Assembly: GCA_046327925.1 (NCBI GenBank) | Contig: JAXLXM010000001.1 | Coordinates: forward strand, 462,390-526,389 | Reading direction: 5' to 3' | Source: Candidatus Binatia bacterium | Lineage (GTDB): Bacteria > Desulfobacterota > Binatia > HRBIN30 | DNA length: 64,000 bases | Part shown: positions 5,405-22,923 of the stretch, piece by piece | How positions within the stretch are numbered: the first letter of the stretch is position 1 | Layout of the letters: each line of letters begins with the position of its first letter | Program-made: the position numbers and the translations under genes | Notes under the pieces: model-generated | The model's input: only the letters and a program-made list of their open reading frames with translations | Databases searched by the model: none | What the model was told of the DNA's origin: nothing

Positions 5405-7540
5405 TCACCTTTTCTCGGTAGTTCCGCGGTCGGCAACCGCGACGCGCCATCGGGAGTCGCCCGCCGCCGCGCGCGCCACGTAGCGGTCGACATCTTCGCC
5501 CAATAAGAAGCCTTCGTCGCGCAGGGACGCGGCGGCCTGCCGCACCTTGTTGATGTAATCCGCCTTGCCCGCGTAGCGCTCTGCAAGCGAGAGTCGGGGG
5601 TCGCCATCCCTGCTGCGCGTAGCGGCGTCCGCGGCGAATGGCTTGAAGCTGCCGACGACCAGGCAGAGTTCACCTTCCGCATAGCCCTTCCTGCGGACGT
5701 TCCAGCCCAGATAGGTACCGACGGGTGCGGCGATATCCGGTAGCCGAATACCACCAATGTCGTTGCCGTCGGCATCGGTGGTCGGCACCAGTATCTTCCA
5801 GCTCCGGCTATAGTCCGCCTGTGGCGGCACGTTGGTGTAATCGGCCACCTCCACGCCATTGACCACCGGACTGTATGGCATCCCGATGCCGAAGAGATCC
5901 GGGAAACCGACCGCCGCCTGCGATGCCGGATCGGCAAGCGTACCGCCGGCAATCGACGGCCATCGGCTGGGCGGCGGTTGCGTTCTGCCGGCAACCCAAT
6001 CCGTCATGGCGACCAGCGCCGCCCTCAACGGCGCGCCGCGTTGCATCGGGTTTGCCTGATACTGGCACGCTGGCAGTGTGCCGCCTGGGTAATGGGTGCC
6101 GCTCGCGATCATGTAGGCGCGAACGTTCTCGGGGAAGGCGACGTCGCGACCCGCGCCATCGGTGCCGACCAGTGCCGCCCCCGCAGTGCGGAACTCGGCG
6201 GCGGTATCGATATGAAAGAGCCTTGGACAGGTTTGATTCGCCGAACACCTTGCAAGTATCCCATCGCGCTTGCCGGTCACGGGATCGGTGGTCGTGGCGT
6301 ACGTAAAGGGAAACTGGTTGCCATAGACCAGATGTTCTTCGTGCTGTCGGGAAAAGCGTCCCGGCTGCGCCCAGCGGACATTGGTGAAGGTCTGGCGCGC
6401 TCCGGCAACAATCGGAATCATGCCGTCGAATACACGCCGCCCGCTACCGTCCGCGTTGAACCCCTGCCATGTGAAGTCCCGCAAGTAGCGCCCGGATTGC
6501 GAGGCACCGATGGCGATCGCCAGATCGACCGGCGCGCCGGCCAGGGCACAGCGACCGCTCGAACCGTTCACCTCACACGGGGCTTGACTCAAATCGGCCA
6601 GGGGACTGGGATTGCCAGCAGAGTCCTTCTGCTCGTACCGCAGAAAGGAAACCAGGTCGCGTGTTACGGCAAAACCCAGTCCCATCACAATCGGGTCGCG
6701 CGCCCGATACACGAATTCGTAAATGGCGCCGGCATCCATGTCGGCGGGACGATCGAGTTGCACGCTCCGGTCATTCACGTAACGCCAATGATCACGGGCG
6801 ATTTCGCGTTTGACGTCGCGCTGTCGGGCGCGCACAGTCAACGTGGCCTGTGTCTGGTCCAGTGTCGCCGCAGGGTAGACCAGTGAAATTGTTGTCGGGG
6901 TGATCAGGTTATCGAACACCACCTCGGTCTGCGTCATGCCGACGATCGACCGTTTGCCATTCCGGGCAACCGGCAGATGGGCCTTGATGAGCGGCACGTT
7001 GCCGAACATCTCCCGCATCCGCGGATCGGCGCTGGCATCCAGATCGCCCTGCCAGCCGCTAAAGACCACCGTATAGCCTTGGCGCATGAGAAAGCCTTGC
7101 CCGCTCTCCTCCGCCGTCATCAGCTCGCCGGGTCTGGCCACGTCGTTGAGCATCTGCAGCAACACCTTGGTACCGCGATTGGCAACCTCGAACACCAGGA
7201 CGCGGCGCGCCTTGGCCCCGTCAATGGGCCGCAGAATGACCAGGTCCGTTGAGTACGAAACCCAGCCGTTATGGCGCGGCGCCTTGTCGAGATCGACGAT
7301 GCCGGCATTGGCGGGATGTCGGGGATCGATCTTGAGGTACGCAACGGCGTCGATGCGCTCATAGACGCCGATGTTGCCGAAGCTCGCGCCGCCGAAGGCG
7401 GGCTGCCGTTTGACGACCTCGATGCGCTCGACAGCGCCTGCGGCCTTCAGCGGCGCTTCGGCCGCACCTGTTTCTGTCGCGCGGCACAGCGCAAACAACA
7501 CGACCGCGAGCGCCCACCGGGCGTGCTTCCGCGCTTTCAT
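5405..7540 (-). CDS. Secreted alpha/beta-hydrolase-domain-like protein (large, uncharacterised family)
   Basis: ORF 5405..7753 trimmed to ATG 7540 (MKARKHARWALAVVLFALCRATETGAAEA signal peptide). N-terminal signature RIEVVKRQPAFGGASFGNIGVYERIDAVAYLKIDPRHPANAGIVDLDKAPRHNGWVSYSTDLVILRP...VLVFEVANRGTK resembles proteins annotated as alpha/beta hydrolase domain-containing. The family assignment is from memory. Confidence 0.6.
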   Translation of the reverse strand: MKARKHARWALAVVLFALCRATETGAAEAPLKAAGAVERIEVVKRQPAFGGASFGNIGVYERIDAVAYLKIDPRHPANAGIVDLDKAPRHNGWVSYSTDLVILRPIDGAKARRVLVFEVANRGTKVLLQMLNDVARPGELMTAEESGQGFLMRQGYTVVFSGWQGDLDASADPRMREMFGNVPLIKAHLPVARNGKRSIVGMTQTEVVFDNLITPTTISLVYPAATLDQTQATLTVRARQRDVKREIARDHWRYVNDRSVQLDRPADMDAGAIYEFVYRARDPIVMGLGFAVTRDLVSFLRYEQKDSAGNPSPLADLSQAPCEVNGSSGRCALAGAPVDLAIAIGASQSGRYLRDFTWQGFNADGSGRRVFDGMIPIVAGARQTFTNVRWAQPGRFSRQHEEHLVYGNQFPFTYATTTDPVTGKRDGILARCSANQTCPRLFHIDTAAEFRTAGAALVGTDGAGRDVAFPENVRAYMIASGTHYPGGTLPACQYQANPMQRGAPLRAALVAMTDWVAGRTQPPPSRWPSIAGGTLADPASQAAVGFPDLFGIGMPYSPVVNGVEVADYTNVPPQADYSRSWKILVPTTDADGNDIGGIRLPDIAAPVGTYLGWNVRRKGYAEGELCLVVGSFKPFAADAATRSRDGDPRLSLAERYAGKADYINKVRQAAASLRDEGFLLGEDVDRYVARAAAGDSRWRVAVADRGTTEKR

Positions 7541-19184: not shown

Positions 19185-20204
19185 TTACGTATGCAGCCGC
19201 GCGATCACCTTCGCGACTTCGACGTCGAGAGCGGGATCGTCAGGCAACGGGAAGGAAACATTGTCGGCAAGTCCGCTATAACGCTCCCGCAGCACGCCGG
19301 CAATCTCGCCGTAGGGCGCGGTGGCGATCAACACATCCAACATCTCGTCGGTGATGACGGGAGTCAGGTCCTGCCAGCGTCCGTCACGGACGAGTTGGTT
19401 CAAGCGCTTGCCGCGATCCTGCCAGCCATACAGCTCGAGGCTCGGCCAGTAGTTTGGGGTCGAGTACAAGATCGCCAGCGTCGCGCGCAGCTTTTCCCGG
19501 CTGTCTCGCGTCGCCCGCTCGTCCACGCCTGTCGCGCACAGGCAGTTGATGCGCAGCTCGACCGCGCTCAGGGGACGCCCGGCGCGCGCCGCGCCGCGCG
19601 CCAGATTCGGCAGCACCCGTTCGCGGAGGAAGCGCGGGGCGACGTTGGTCGGATGGGTGGCCAGCGCGTCGCCAACCTCGCCGGCCACGGCGGTGATGAA
19701 GGGCCCGATCCCGGCCAGGCTGATGGGAATATCGGGATGCTCGATGGGAGGGGGCTTGACGAAGTCCTGCATCCGCGTGAATCGATAGTCTTTGCCTTCG
19801 AAGTTGAGCGGCACATCGTTCTGCCAGCAGTTGAAGATCGCCCGCAGGGCGCGCACGTACTCGCGCATGCGCGGCGCCGGCGGCGTCCACCGCTCGCTGT
19901 AGCGGCGGATGATATTGCCGCGCACCTGCGGGCCGAGTCCAAGCTCGAAGCGCGTCCCGAACGCGCGTCGCAGATCCCACGCCGCGATGGCGACGATCAT
20001 CGGGCTGCGGGCGAAGGCCACCAGCGCGGGAATACTGACGGTGATGCGGCTGGTGGCACTGAGCGCGGCCCACGCACCCAGGAAGCCGTCCGCAACCTGG
20101 TCGGCGACCTTGAACCCGTCAAAGCCGAGCGCCTCGGCACGCCGGGCATAGGCGCCCAACTGCGTGACTGGCATGCGGAAATCGGTTGTGGTCCAGACCT
20201 TCAT
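19185..20204 (-). CDS. Luciferase-like monooxygenase family, probable F420-dependent oxidoreductase
   Basis: ORF 19185..20210, ATG at 20204 (MKVWTTTDF...). Motifs AEALGFDGFKVADQ, VAFARSPMIVAIAAWDLRR, FELGLGPQVRGNIIRRY and PRMREYVRALRAIF resemble the LLM class F420 subfamily as I recall it. Confidence 0.8.
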   Translation of the reverse strand: MKVWTTTDFRMPVTQLGAYARRAEALGFDGFKVADQVADGFLGAWAALSATSRITVSIPALVAFARSPMIVAIAAWDLRRAFGTRFELGLGPQVRGNIIRRYSERWTPPAPRMREYVRALRAIFNCWQNDVPLNFEGKDYRFTRMQDFVKPPPIEHPDIPISLAGIGPFITAVAGEVGDALATHPTNVAPRFLRERVLPNLARGAARAGRPLSAVELRINCLCATGVDERATRDSREKLRATLAILYSTPNYWPSLELYGWQDRGKRLNQLVRDGRWQDLTPVITDEMLDVLIATAPYGEIAGVLRERYSGLADNVSFPLPDDPALDVEVAKVIARLHT

Positions 20205-20219
20205 GAGCACGACTCTCGC

Positions 20220-20489
20220 CTATCGGCCGCGCGTTGAGGGAAGTCCCAGGCGTTTTCCTACCGCGTCGCTCGACAGCCCTCCTTCGGCCTCCTGCCGCTT
20301 TCGCGATCGCTCCAGGATCGCCCGGAACTTGGCGTTGACGCTCAGGAGCATGGTCTCGGCGTCGCGTTCGTCGCCGGGGACTATGGTCGCCACGACATGC
20401 CCGCGGTCGGTGAGTAAGAACGGCCGAACGGCGCCGCGCTTGAGGTGAGGAACCACGGCAGACACCTCCGGCAATTCAACGGCTTTCAT
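20220..20489 (-). CDS. Phd/YefM-type antitoxin-like protein (no adjacent toxin)
   Basis: 89 aa, strong GGAGGAAA RBS. MKAVELPEVSAVVPHLKRGAVRPFLLTDRGHVVATIVPGDE... followed by C-terminal NAKFRAILERSRKRQEAEGGLSSD, typical of Phd/YefM-like antitoxins. Confidence 0.65.
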   Translation of the reverse strand: MKAVELPEVSAVVPHLKRGAVRPFLLTDRGHVVATIVPGDERDAETMLLSVNAKFRAILERSRKRQEAEGGLSSDAVGKRLGLPSTRGR

Positions 20490-20588
20490 AATTCGATTTC
20501 CTCCATGCCGACCCGCCGCTCATTATGTCGCTCGATGCCGCCGGCCGCAATCTTGACTAGCGTCTCGGGCTCCTCTCACACCGCGTAG

Positions 20589-21045
20589 AACACCCGAATC
20601 TGGCCCAACCGGAGTTCTCAGGGAGCAATCGGATTCGGGGGGAGAAGCGGCGCAAGCGCGCGGAGCGTGCCGAGGCACTGGTGAAGGTCCCACTATTTCG
20701 GCATCAGCCACACCTACACGGGGTTGCGGGCACTGGAGGAGTGGGTGCGTCGAAGGGTGCGGGTGTACTCCTGGAAGCAGTGGCAACAGCCCCGGACTCG
20801 CCGCCATTTGATCGCCTTGGGTATCGCGCCCGCGAGGGTACTGGCGGATGAGTGCCAACAGCATCGTCCAACGCGCCCTGAATAACCGCCGGCTGCGCGC
20901 ACAGGGAGTTCCCGACAGGCGCACCTTACGGATTGGTCGTCACTACGGGCCCCACAGGCCCGTGTCCGATCGGAACCGCCGTATGCAGACCCGCACGTCC
21001 GGTGGTGTGGCAGCCCGGCTGGCCCTCACGGGTCAGTCCCGGCGA
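20589..21045 (+). mobile_element. 5'-truncated, frameshifted group II intron remnant (maturase C-terminus plus domains V/VI)
   Basis: Plus-strand translation gives (in-frame TGA) RSHYFGISHTYTGLRALEEWVRRRVRVYSWKQWQQPRTRRHLIALGI, then after a frameshift MSANSIVQRALNNRRLRAQGVPD. This is a typical maturase (GIIM) domain tail. 20975..21006 (AACCGCCGTATGC-AGACCC-GCACGTCCGGTGGT) matches the domain V hairpin pattern CCGUAUGC...GCACGU.CGG. An 11-bp bulged hairpin at 21015..21042 sits in the domain VI position. Boundaries are approximate. Confidence 0.7.
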
Positions 21046-21050
21046 GCCGA

Positions 21051-21389
21051 TTAGCTCCCGACTATCTCATTGAGGCCATCGACGAGCCGGTCCTGCTCCT
21101 CCGGCGTCACCCGGCCCAATTTCCGGCCGAGCCGGTCCACCGACAGGGAGCGGATCTGACTGATCTTGACCCACGAGCGTTTTGGCAGGCGCACCTTCTT
21201 CAGTTCCATCGTGAGCGGAAAGCTGGCGCGCTGCGGTTGGCTCGTCACCGCCATGGCGATCACCGTTCCGGATCGCTGATTGAAGATGTCATGGCTCAGC
21301 ACAACCACTGGCCGCAACCCGGCTTGTTCGTGACCCCGGGCAGGGTTCAAGTCGGCCCAAATGACATCACCTCTCAGTACGCCGGCCAT
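21051..21389 (-). CDS. mazF: MazF/PemK-family type II toxin (endoribonuclease)
   Basis: 112 aa. [45 protein letters not shown]...[16 protein letters not shown], a classic PemK/MazF pattern. Overlaps the antitoxin gene by 16 nt. Confidence 0.9.
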
Positions 21390-21616
21390 TCGGCCAACTC
21401 TCCGGACAACCCTTCATCCGCCAACGCCTTCTCGAACGCTGGGTCGAGCTTGGCGCACTCCCGGGCGAGGCGGGACCGATCAAGCCGTTCCAATTTTTCC
21501 TTTACAGCTTGTTCGATTGCCTTGCTCCGGTTCGGAAACGTCTGCTGCCTCACCAACCGATCGAGCTGTGCGAGAACGCCCTCGTCGAGAGAAATGGCCA
21601 CCTTTGCCGCTGCCAT
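21374..21616 (-). CDS. mazE: Ribbon-helix-helix (CopG-type) antitoxin paired with MazF
   Basis: ORF 21374..21709 trimmed to ATG 21616 (AGAGGTGAG RBS). [45 protein letters not shown], an RHH fold signature. Confidence 0.8.
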
Positions 21617-21628
21617 GCACTCACCTCT

Positions 21629-21649
21629 GGTATGATTCGTTATCATACC
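21629..21649. promoter_or_regulatory. Perfect palindrome upstream of mazE (candidate autoregulatory operator overlapping a -10-like TATGAT)
   Basis: GGTATGAT-TCGTT-ATCATACC lies 13 nt upstream of the mazE ATG. TA operons are classically autorepressed at palindromes in this position. Confidence 0.5.
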
Positions 21650-21695
21650 GCGGATCCGCGCCGCAACCTTGCGGACGGAGCTACCGTCGTGCGCC

Positions 21696-22013
21696 TCAAC
21701 CGCGCGCACGTCTCTTGCGCGGCGGCTGCAGGCGCTTGTTCGGCCGGGATCGACTCACGAGTGGAAAACGCTCTGGATGGTCGATTGAATCAACCGCCAC
21801 ATCGACGTCGAGATCGGGCCAATACAGATGGTGCGGATGCGGGAGCTCGACGTTGCAGAGTTTCCCGATCGGGACGTCGCGAAACCACGGGAACTGCTCG
21901 AAGGAGACAAAGCGCTCTCGACCCTCGAGCAGCAGCCAGAATCCATGTCGTGAGACGTTCGTGACCTCAACCGCCGAAGTGGGCTCTCCACGCATCGCGG
22001 ATTTCACCTTCAT
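21696..22013 (-). CDS. DUF2442 domain protein
   Basis: Tail of ORF 21696..22205 from ATG 22013 (alternative ATG 21995). [68 protein letters not shown] matches the DUF2442 pattern (L.WP.LD.D..V..L). Confidence 0.7.
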
Positions 22014-22365
22014 GCTCCGGAACAAGCCGCCGCGATTGAGGACGTGCGCGTACACCATCGTCGTGCGGACGTCCCCCCTGCACAGTGCGAATATCGTAGC
22101 CATCGCGCACCAGATCGGCGGCGAACGAATGCCGGAATGTGGGGCAGCCGACGTGCGCCAGGGCATCCGGGAGGTACACCGCCCCGACCCTCCTGGCGCA
22201 CCCACTCCTCATACGTCGCCCGCAGCTGCGCTACGGGCGTGCGCAAGGGCTCTCTTACTGCCGCCGGCAAGGCTTGCAACGATCCGTGGCGCGCCGCCTG
22301 CGCGATGCGCCGGCGACAATTGCAACGTTCGCCGACAGCTCGTGCGTCGGTGAAATTCGCATACG
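22014..22365 (-). pseudogene. Integron-integrase-like tyrosine recombinase relic (N-terminally truncated, internal deletions, two frameshifts)
   Basis: Three minus-strand frames concatenate. The first gives LPAAVREPLRTPVAQLRATYEEWVRQEGRGGV. After a shift near 22177 comes [33 protein letters not shown]. After a shift near 22077 comes [17 protein letters not shown]. This is collinear with the IntI1 segments LPESLAPSLREQL...[42 protein letters not shown] and DVSTTMIYTHVLKVGG. Confidence 0.75.
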
Positions 22366-22374
22366 AAAAGACGC

Positions 22375-22923
22375 TCAGGTTGTTGTCGACCACTCCCGAA
22401 TGACCTCAATCGTCTTGTCCGTGTACTCCTTCTTGTCCGGCAACGGCCGCCCCAGCCACTCGGTATAGAAGGTATCGAGGTCGGGCAGGAAATCGAAATC
22501 CGGCGGACACCCGCGCGGCACCGCTTCGACTTCGAGTTGGCTGCCGCACCCTGGGCAGTAGTATTCCCGCACCTGGATCCAGTCGGGATCCGGTTGTTCC
22601 ATGCCACGATAGATTTCCGCCAGTTGCTCGGCGGTCTCGCGGACATAGATCAGCGACTCCAGCTTCCAGTTGACCCGATAATCGCAGAATTCGTGGCCGC
22701 AACGGCATTTGACGATGCGGTCGCGGTCTTTCTGTACGATAAACAGGTTCGGGCCCAGCGGCAGCAGGATCCGCTCCTTCCACGCCACGCGCCCTTGCAG
22801 AATGTCGATCCACTTATCGAAGCGATCGGTATCCTTGGCCTCCTTCATGATGTCCTGGACCTGGGTCCAGGGCAGTTTCCCGTCCACGAGTTTCTCGATT
22901 TCGCTGATGTCGTAGGTTGGCAC
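22375..22923 (-). CDS. acxC: Acetone-carboxylase-like gamma subunit
   Basis: ORF 22375..23115 trimmed to GTG 22923 (AAGGAGA RBS 7 nt upstream). Cys motifs KCRCGHEFCDYRVNWK and YYCPGCGSQLEVEAVPRGCP are typical of the gamma subunit. Confidence 0.8.
   Translation of the reverse strand: MPTYDISEIEKLVDGKLPWTQVQDIMKEAKDTDRFDKWIDILQGRVAWKERILLPLGPNLFIVQKDRDRIVKCRCGHEFCDYRVNWKLESLIYVRETAEQLAEIYRGMEQPDPDWIQVREYYCPGCGSQLEVEAVPRGCPPDFDFLPDLDTFYTEWLGRPLPDKKEYTDKTIEVIREWSTTT

Follow-up and report, generated by a model that had tools for sequence, protein, structure and literature searches.

Positions 20690-21051 of the window, by which we mean the whole stretch of 64,000 nucleotides that was analysed, very probably represent the non-functional 3' stub of a group IIC-attC intron, which was inserted at the attC site of a mazEF cassette and was later cut by a deletion. 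The relic lies within a decayed chromosomal integron, of which an integron-integrase (IntI) remnant and the DUF2442, mazEF, and parE-phd cassettes are left. The stub is the fossil of a well-described intron type at a textbook target, and as such it is real yet ordinary. Its value is that it marks, to the base, the former attC R'' box of the mazEF cassette and is thereby an aid in reading a decayed chromosomal integron.

Identity and extent of the intron stub

A pairwise alignment with a full copy of 1863 nt from the related genome G017 placed the relic (20690-21051, plus strand, 362 bases) at nt 1472-1863 of the intron. [quoted passage not shown] The Rfam model Intron_gpII (RF00029), which covers domains V and VI, matched positions 20974-21051 (plus strand) with 29.9 bits, below the gathering score of 40, and the E-value of 0.001 for this match came from a permissive 1-kb search (20300-21300). 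When the whole window was scanned with Rfam at the gathering threshold, no match was obtained. The same model gave 40.2 bits for the C16 paralogue and 49.3 bits for a class 1 integron reference, and the sub-threshold score of the stub is due to the loss of two base pairs in domain V, one through a G>A substitution at 20987 and the other through an A>C substitution at 20999. The proposal of a sequence-only reading of this DNA, namely that a group II intron remnant is present, was borne out by the 86% identity to the full C16 intron, and the sub-threshold covariance match to domains V and VI points the same way.

Domain V is located at 20976-21005 (plus strand), as delimited by the RF00029 alignment and by comparison with active copies; its loop is GACC, and the position of the catalytic triad (20977-20979) is occupied by CGC, where the model has AGC. 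Domain VI and the 3' splice site occupy positions 21008-21051 (plus strand) in the Rfam alignment and end with ...GAGCCGAU, with the A at 21045 as the candidate bulged branch point. The final 34 nt of the stub are the same as those of the G017 copies, with no change, and its 3' end reads CGAU/UAG, as in a class 1 integron intron (here and below, a slash within a sequence or between two positions marks a junction). The domain V-like hairpin that had been noted from the letters alone was therefore found again, at 20976-21005, and the 11-bp hairpin with a 2-nt bulge that had been described at 21015-21042 proved to be the distal part of domain VI.

The sequence upstream of the two ribozyme domains (20690-20967, plus strand) aligned with the last ~98 codons of the RT/maturase, which comprise the end of domain X and the C-terminal tail. 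The alignment with the G017 protein runs from ...HYFGISHTY onward, and a weak Pfam GIIM match (E = 2e-4) was obtained for the same remnant. When the maturase remnant is compared with the active copies, 3 nt are missing after 20798, a net loss of 29 nt at 20827-20835 breaks the frame, and 2 nt are inserted at 20950-20951. The remnant is frameshifted and no longer has its original stop. The frameshift that had been suspected near 20848 is accounted for by the 29-nt deletion close by. Since the window aligns only to nt 1472-1863 of the 1863-nt intron, RT domains 0-7 and ribozyme domains I-III are missing, in agreement with what had been read from the letters. With domains I-IV and the RT gone and with two broken pairs in domain V, the stub is incapable of splicing or moving. 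Its effects today are structural only: as a result of the stub and the deletion, no attC accompanies mazEF, which is fixed in place beside a dead integrase, and the stub itself is now the sequence downstream of mazF. Neither a sigma-70-like promoter nor an intrinsic terminator was found in 20150-21800; the outward promoter that has been described for IIC-attC introns is located in the 5' part (PMC3001079), which is lost here.

The left border of the relic had been placed at 20589, which is off by 100 nt: the relic begins at 20690, and positions 20589-20689 contain no intron sequence. Fused directly to the stub is a 48-nt internal scrap of an IS3-family orfA (20642-20690, plus strand), with 85-91% identity to orfA in four other genomes (G002, G016, G013, and G011), and the in-frame TGA at 20682, which had been assigned to the maturase, is located inside this scrap and outside the maturase. 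In other genomes, orfA matches HTH_Tnp_1 and is followed by a downstream frame with rve; the scrap terminates just 5' of the A8G frameshift site of the element. There is no close copy of this IS3 element in the assembly, in which only a 55%-identical orfA was found, on C11. A weak alignment to the C16 copy had made positions 20636-20690 a candidate for diverged maturase sequence, and this candidate was rejected because 48 nt match IS3 orfA at 85-91% in four genomes.

Farther to the left, a parE/relE-like toxin pseudogene (20486 to ~20650, minus strand) has 74% DNA identity to an intact pair in G006:C113, whose parE homologue matches Pfam ParE_toxin. The pseudogene has lost ~45 codons at its 5' end and contains two in-frame stops (W>stop and E>stop), and the 3' two-thirds of the gene survive. 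It is followed by an intact Phd/YefM-like antitoxin gene of 89 aa (20220-20489, minus strand). The homologue of this antitoxin in G006, which has a weak PhdYeFM match, overlaps its parE by ATGA, and the antitoxin in the window is, judging from this pair, the partner of the dead parE and no orphan. Upstream of the stub, no 5' exon, hairpin, or attC is left. The homology of parE-phd to the relatives ends at 20220-20224 (...TCGGCC), where the relatives read GTTCGGCC, a core-site-like box. A luciferase-like monooxygenase gene starts 10-15 nt away, and the island may thus have a cassette boundary at its left edge.

Class and target preference of the intron family

Full-length copies of the intron are present elsewhere in the genome, on C16, and also in relatives, at attC-type sites. 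The genome G017, a MAG labelled uncultured delta proteobacterium MFD01476.bin.1.163, contains at least nine near-identical copies of 1863 nt with intact ORFs, and its contig C31 carries two intron copies at most 9 kb downstream of a full-length intI; the intron family appears to be currently active in this genome. The C16 copy (C16:41105-46093; locus L004 4105-9001, minus strand) is a full IIC-attC intron that is interrupted just after the YADD motif of the RT by a different group II intron, which Rfam assigns to the D1D4-2 type (100 and 83 bits) and of which one complete and one partial copy are present in tandem, resulting in an intron nested within an intron.

The protein encoded by the G017 copies has 422 aa and consists of RVT_1 and GIIM without an endonuclease domain (Pfam), and the full copies gave Rfam D1D4-3 matches of 97-135 bits. 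The N-terminal half of the C16 protein (RT domains 0-5) matched the GsI-IIC RT with 279 bits, compared with 119 bits for LtrA and 108 bits for a T.el4h-type maturase. After the GsI-IIC RT, the C16 protein was closest to two other IIC RTs in PDB, and its C-terminal half matched only IIC RTs in PDB (106 bits for GsI-IIC). IIC introns have CGC rather than AGC at the catalytic triad of domain V. The similarity to the GsI-IIC RT, the lack of an endonuclease domain, and the CGC of domain V identify the family, at the level of sequence, as class C, with the protein evidence taken on full-length relatives and the window retaining only the last ~98 codons.

The target preference of the family was apparent from the exons. 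The 5' exon of the C16 copy ends with ...GCGCATGT and its 3' exon starts with TAGGTGCC, and the joined exons form a 100-nt imperfect hairpin, GGCTAAC...GT/TAGGT (z = -4.4). Five full copies, the one on C16 and four in G017, are all located after RYYYAAC-like...(T or A)TGT. When ~60 loci encoding RT relatives with 55-92% identity were compared, the 5' exon ended with TTGT in 50 of them and with TGGT or GTGT in nine more, and nearly all 3' exons started with T. An antisense ORF of at least 60 aa ended within 45 nt of the 3' junction at 19 of 26 distinct junctions, compared with 84 of 392 random positions (21%; p = 1e-7). According to published work, IIC-attC introns enter the bottom strand of attC at its R'' box, within TTGT/T and antisense to the cassettes (PMC7923331), and split a cassette gene from its attC (PMC3001079, PMC8876359). 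The target behaviour of the present family matches this published behaviour (see also PMC4424553). Of the two targets that had been proposed from the letters alone, an attC or a terminator stem, the attC type is supported by the full copies, which follow a long imperfect palindrome and then TTGT/T, and the geometry in the window, antisense and with the gene split from its attC, agrees with published IIC-attC cases (PMC3001079, PMC8876359, PMC7923331).

The MAGs with RT relatives are labelled Verrucomicrobiota or PVC, delta-proteobacteria, Desulfobacterales, Marinobacter, Halomonadaceae, and others. The stub leads to a large family of introns that carry the target signature of IIC-attC elements, with full 1863-nt copies in G017. 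This family ranges over MAGs labelled Verrucomicrobiota or PVC, delta-proteobacteria, and Desulfobacterales as well as marine Gammaproteobacteria, and it might be used to probe sedentary integrons for attC sites.

Reference elements from known integrons have the same layout. For instance, a Klebsiella class 1 integron has the order intI1, blaGES-24, and an antisense intron, whose 5' exon ends with AATTGT, whose own end is CCCGAU, and whose 3' exon begins with TAGACGG, with the blaGES stop 14 nt off; introns are also found directly after aadA1 and fosE in a class 1 integron of P. putida. A copy on a Bradyrhizobium plasmid instead follows a short hairpin with a T run and is of the terminator type. 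When a tree was built from the N-terminal RT region, one clade (91/94 support) united the terminator-type introns with the IIC introns from PDB, another (96/92) comprised the gammaproteobacterial IIC-attC introns, and the present family was located on the backbone, outside the terminator-type clade and not placed as sister to the clinical IIC-attC clade. Common descent of the family with the clinical IIC-attC introns is compatible with this position.

The family shares many features with the IIC-attC introns of mobile integrons (S.ma.I2 and its relatives): the ribozyme ends (5' GTRCGCCCAGCATGGGC and 3' ...CGAU), the Rfam D1D4-3 and D5/D6 matches, a protein of ~420 aa without an endonuclease domain, the target TTGT/T after the attC stem, and the antisense position between a cassette gene and its attC. 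However, the RTs of the two groups are only 57-59% identical, the present host is an environmental bacterium, rich in GC, whose chromosomal integrons are sedentary and have intI in the same orientation as the array, and the copy in the window is a dead stub of 362 nt. A 5'-truncated IIC-attC intron has also been described in a cassette array from a soda-lake metagenome (UHB.F1; PMC7923331). Like the stub in the window, UHB.F1 is antisense to the neighbouring cassettes, and its array includes type II toxin-antitoxin cassettes (PMC7923331). In contrast to the copy in the window, in which only the last fifth of the intron remains and is joined to an IS3 scrap, UHB.F1 retains all RT domains. GsI-IIC from Geobacillus stearothermophilus, the closest solved protein, belongs to the same class C and its ribozyme is also small, but this intron and other terminator-targeting IIC introns are located after intrinsic terminators, are co-oriented with the upstream gene, and form a clade that is separate from the TTGT-type family in the tree.

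The mazEF junction and the integron context

The right border of the stub adjoins an intact mazF toxin gene of 112 aa (21051-21389, minus strand; Pfam PemK_toxin, E = 7.6e-30), next to which is a gene for a mazE-type ribbon-helix-helix antitoxin (21374-21617, minus strand; Pfam RHH_1, E = 3.6e-7) with a probable start at MAAAKV.... The sequence-only reading had placed the intron end, in antisense, within ~5 nt of the mazF stop codon; the adjacency and the position of the stop (21051-21053, minus strand) hold, but instead of a gap there is an overlap of one base at 21051, where the last U of the intron also serves as the final base of the mazF stop codon (TAA). The 3' exon, TAGCTCC (21052-21058, plus strand), is the retained half of the attC R'' box, which reads AGCTA/AC on the mazF strand, as read from the empty sites in six relatives and from the published target, TTGT/T at R'' (PMC7923331).

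The mazEF module is present in these six relatives (G006, G025, G007, G004, G001, and G002) with 78-88% identity, and in all six the homology to the window ends exactly at 21051/21052. At this position the relatives read GGGT/ (G006), TTGC/ (G025), ATAT/ (G007), CTGT/ (G004), TTGC/ (G001), and GTTGT/TAGCTCC (G002), and a long imperfect palindrome ends at the empty site in at least three of the six (G001, G002, and G006). The break of homology in the empty sites of the relatives fixes the intron end at 21051. Since a T is found at the third base of the stop in most empty sites as well, MazF was left unaltered by the insertion. The 5' exon of the stub itself is deleted; judging from the relatives and the paralogues, it would have consisted of an attC stem and TTGT.

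To the right of mazEF and on the same strand are a DUF2442 cassette gene (21696-22013, minus strand; Pfam DUF2442, E = 1.9e-14) and the IntI remnant (22014-22393, minus strand), for which a TIGR02249 match was obtained at C1:484446-484547 (30.9 bits, positions 257-290). The IntI remnant lacks its N-terminus, has an internal deletion, and is spread over three frames, with the ORF translations ...GGVYLPDALA, HSFA...GYDIRTVQ, and DVRTTMVYAHVLNRGG. It is the sole integrase trace in the window, and no intact attC was found around the stub, as judged from consensus boxes and folds, on which all attC calls here are based. The genome contains additional IntI genes and fragments. The best of these is located at C16:32972-33823 (plus strand; TIGR02249, 407 bits) and contains one in-frame TGA, which reflects either a recent pseudogene or a sequencing error; relative to the full intron, this gene lies 7 kb upstream, and the two are on different strands.

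The arrangement of intI followed downstream by introns on the opposite strand is found on C16, G017:C31, and G004:C28, and the IntI remnant and the stub in the window agree with it. This relation supports the minus strand as the top strand of the cassettes, with DUF2442, mazEF, and parE-phd as sense cassettes and the intron in the bottom strand. An assignment of the strands from the box consensus and bulges was also considered and was of no use, because the sites read alike on both strands, and the orientation of intI and the introns was used instead. An empty site of the whole island was sought by joining the luciferase and acxC flanks, which were adjacent in none of 25 relatives.

The 3' end of the DUF2442 gene overlaps a conserved 44-nt hairpin (21692-21735; fold with z = -2.95, minus strand). 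A 55-nt element over the DUF2442 stop (21685-21745), which begins with GCCGAAC on the gene strand, has 85-92% identity in a dozen related genomes, far above the conservation of its surroundings, and may be a conserved attC half-site. Positions 21679-21744 were considered as the attC of mazEF and rejected: they are partly the conserved 3' end of DUF2442 and have one other copy in the genome, and the hairpin was not called attC.

Origin of the stub and alternative explanations

For the sequence of events and the way in which the deletion arose, we infer the following. The mazEF pair would first have been a cassette in a chromosomal integron, with the mazF TAA stop located inside the attC R'' box (AGCTAAC on the mazF strand). 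An intron RNP would then have recognised the folded attC bottom strand and reverse-spliced after TTGT and before T, which would have placed the intron antisense to mazF, between the gene and its attC; the stop codon of mazF was preserved because the intron ends in U. At least one event of illegitimate recombination would later have removed nt 1-1471 of the intron, what remained of the attC, and ~45 codons from the start of parE in the next cassette, leaving the 48-nt IS3 orfA scrap at the junction, and point mutations and small indels would have followed. The deletion could have taken place either as two deletions around an IS3 insertion or as a single deletion with templated filler. The absence of a 5' exon hairpin, the internal IS3 fragment, and the truncated next cassette point to loss after the insertion. 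In this respect, the earlier description of the intron as 5'-truncated stands insofar as the 5' part is missing, but the IS3 scrap and the truncated parE fit a later deletion or rearrangement better than a simple truncation.

It is unlikely that the intron was instead truncated at the time of insertion, in which case the RT would have aborted at ~nt 1472, perhaps with a template switch to an IS3 transcript for 48 nt, and the product would have been joined through microhomology with loss of target DNA. The IS3 scrap is indeed sense-oriented like the intron and fused to its truncated end, as a template switch would give, and a few bases are shared at both junctions. Furthermore, the closest solved relative of the protein is the GsI-IIC RT, which is known for template switching. 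However, random deletion would produce this shared orientation in 50% of cases, more than 200 nt of target would have had to be lost at the same time, and the assembly has no close IS3 copy, the orfA on C11 being only 55% identical. In addition, the same facts are explained by an IS insertion followed by two deletions in turn, or by one deletion filled in from a template. The stub would be a chimeric retro-insertion in the more specific version of this scenario, with an RT stop at ~nt 1472, a jump to an IS3 transcript, 48 nt copied before the A8G slippery site, and the cDNA joined into the neighbouring cassette. We consider this version distinctly unlikely; if true, it would be a bacterial counterpart of the template-switch chimeras of eukaryotic LINEs. 

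The strands of the integron could also be the reverse of those adopted here, with the plus strand as the top strand of the cassettes, mazEF as an inverted cassette beginning with G/TTAGCTCC, and the intron located at the R' box in the attC of the cassette before it, on the top strand. The homology of mazEF between genomes stops sharply at T/TAGCTCC, as at a cassette boundary, an inverted copy, GGAGCTA(A or C)C, is found beyond mazE in the window, G006, and G007, and attC boxes read alike on both strands; for IIC introns, a single case of insertion into the top strand has been described (PMC7923331). Moreover, the attC-like flanks downstream of mazF differ among the relatives and are common to G001 and G002 only. 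Such differences would not be expected if every cassette took its attC along whenever it moved, and this counts against the explanation that we prefer; it is more natural with a cassette boundary at G/TTAGCTCC, and the inverted cassette was kept as an alternative for this reason. It is nevertheless an improbable one, because it needs the inversion of all three cassettes, because intI is followed by opposite-strand introns on C16, G017:C31, and G004:C28, with the IntI remnant and the stub likewise, and because antisense gene stops beside the 3' junction are the rule in the family. A stop codon within R'' is, in addition, a familiar feature of integron cassettes.

Two further explanations concern the target and the assembly. 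Most IIC introns insert after intrinsic terminators (PMC4424553), and no attC survives in the window, both of which would suit an ordinary terminator-targeting IIC intron that was inserted after the mazEF terminator with no integron site involved. However, the 5' exons of the family consist of TTGT after imperfect palindromes of 60-120 nt starting with an RYYYAAC-like sequence, and not of a short GC hairpin with a T run, as the contrast with the terminator-type Bradyrhizobium copy illustrates, and the family copies adjoin integron integrases. Sense use of the mazEF terminator would also give an intron that is co-oriented with mazF, whereas the stub is antisense, which makes this explanation very unlikely. 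An assembly artefact, in which the parE piece, the IS3 scrap, and the intron stub are a chimera of repeats, might be suspected in a MAG with 6.4% estimated contamination, particularly since introns and IS elements are repeats that confuse assemblers. This can hardly be the case here: the stub has deletions of its own and shares just 86% identity with the other copy in the assembly, so that the assembler had no identical repeat to jump through, the contig spans 966 kb, and the right junction matches the empty sites of the relatives to the base.

Insertion at the mazEF attC followed by deletion, the explanation that we prefer, illustrates how an intron insertion and a later deletion can give rise to a cassette without an attC and fix a toxin-antitoxin pair in the chromosome. 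A second and shorter stub was found in the same genome at C13:347625-347693 (locus L005 ~5625-5683). It consists of domains V and VI only (~70 nt), ends with ...CCGAT/TAGCTGG at 16 nt from the stop of an antisense ORF, and is located in an island with hicAB, a nucleotidyltransferase-type gene, and integrase fragments.
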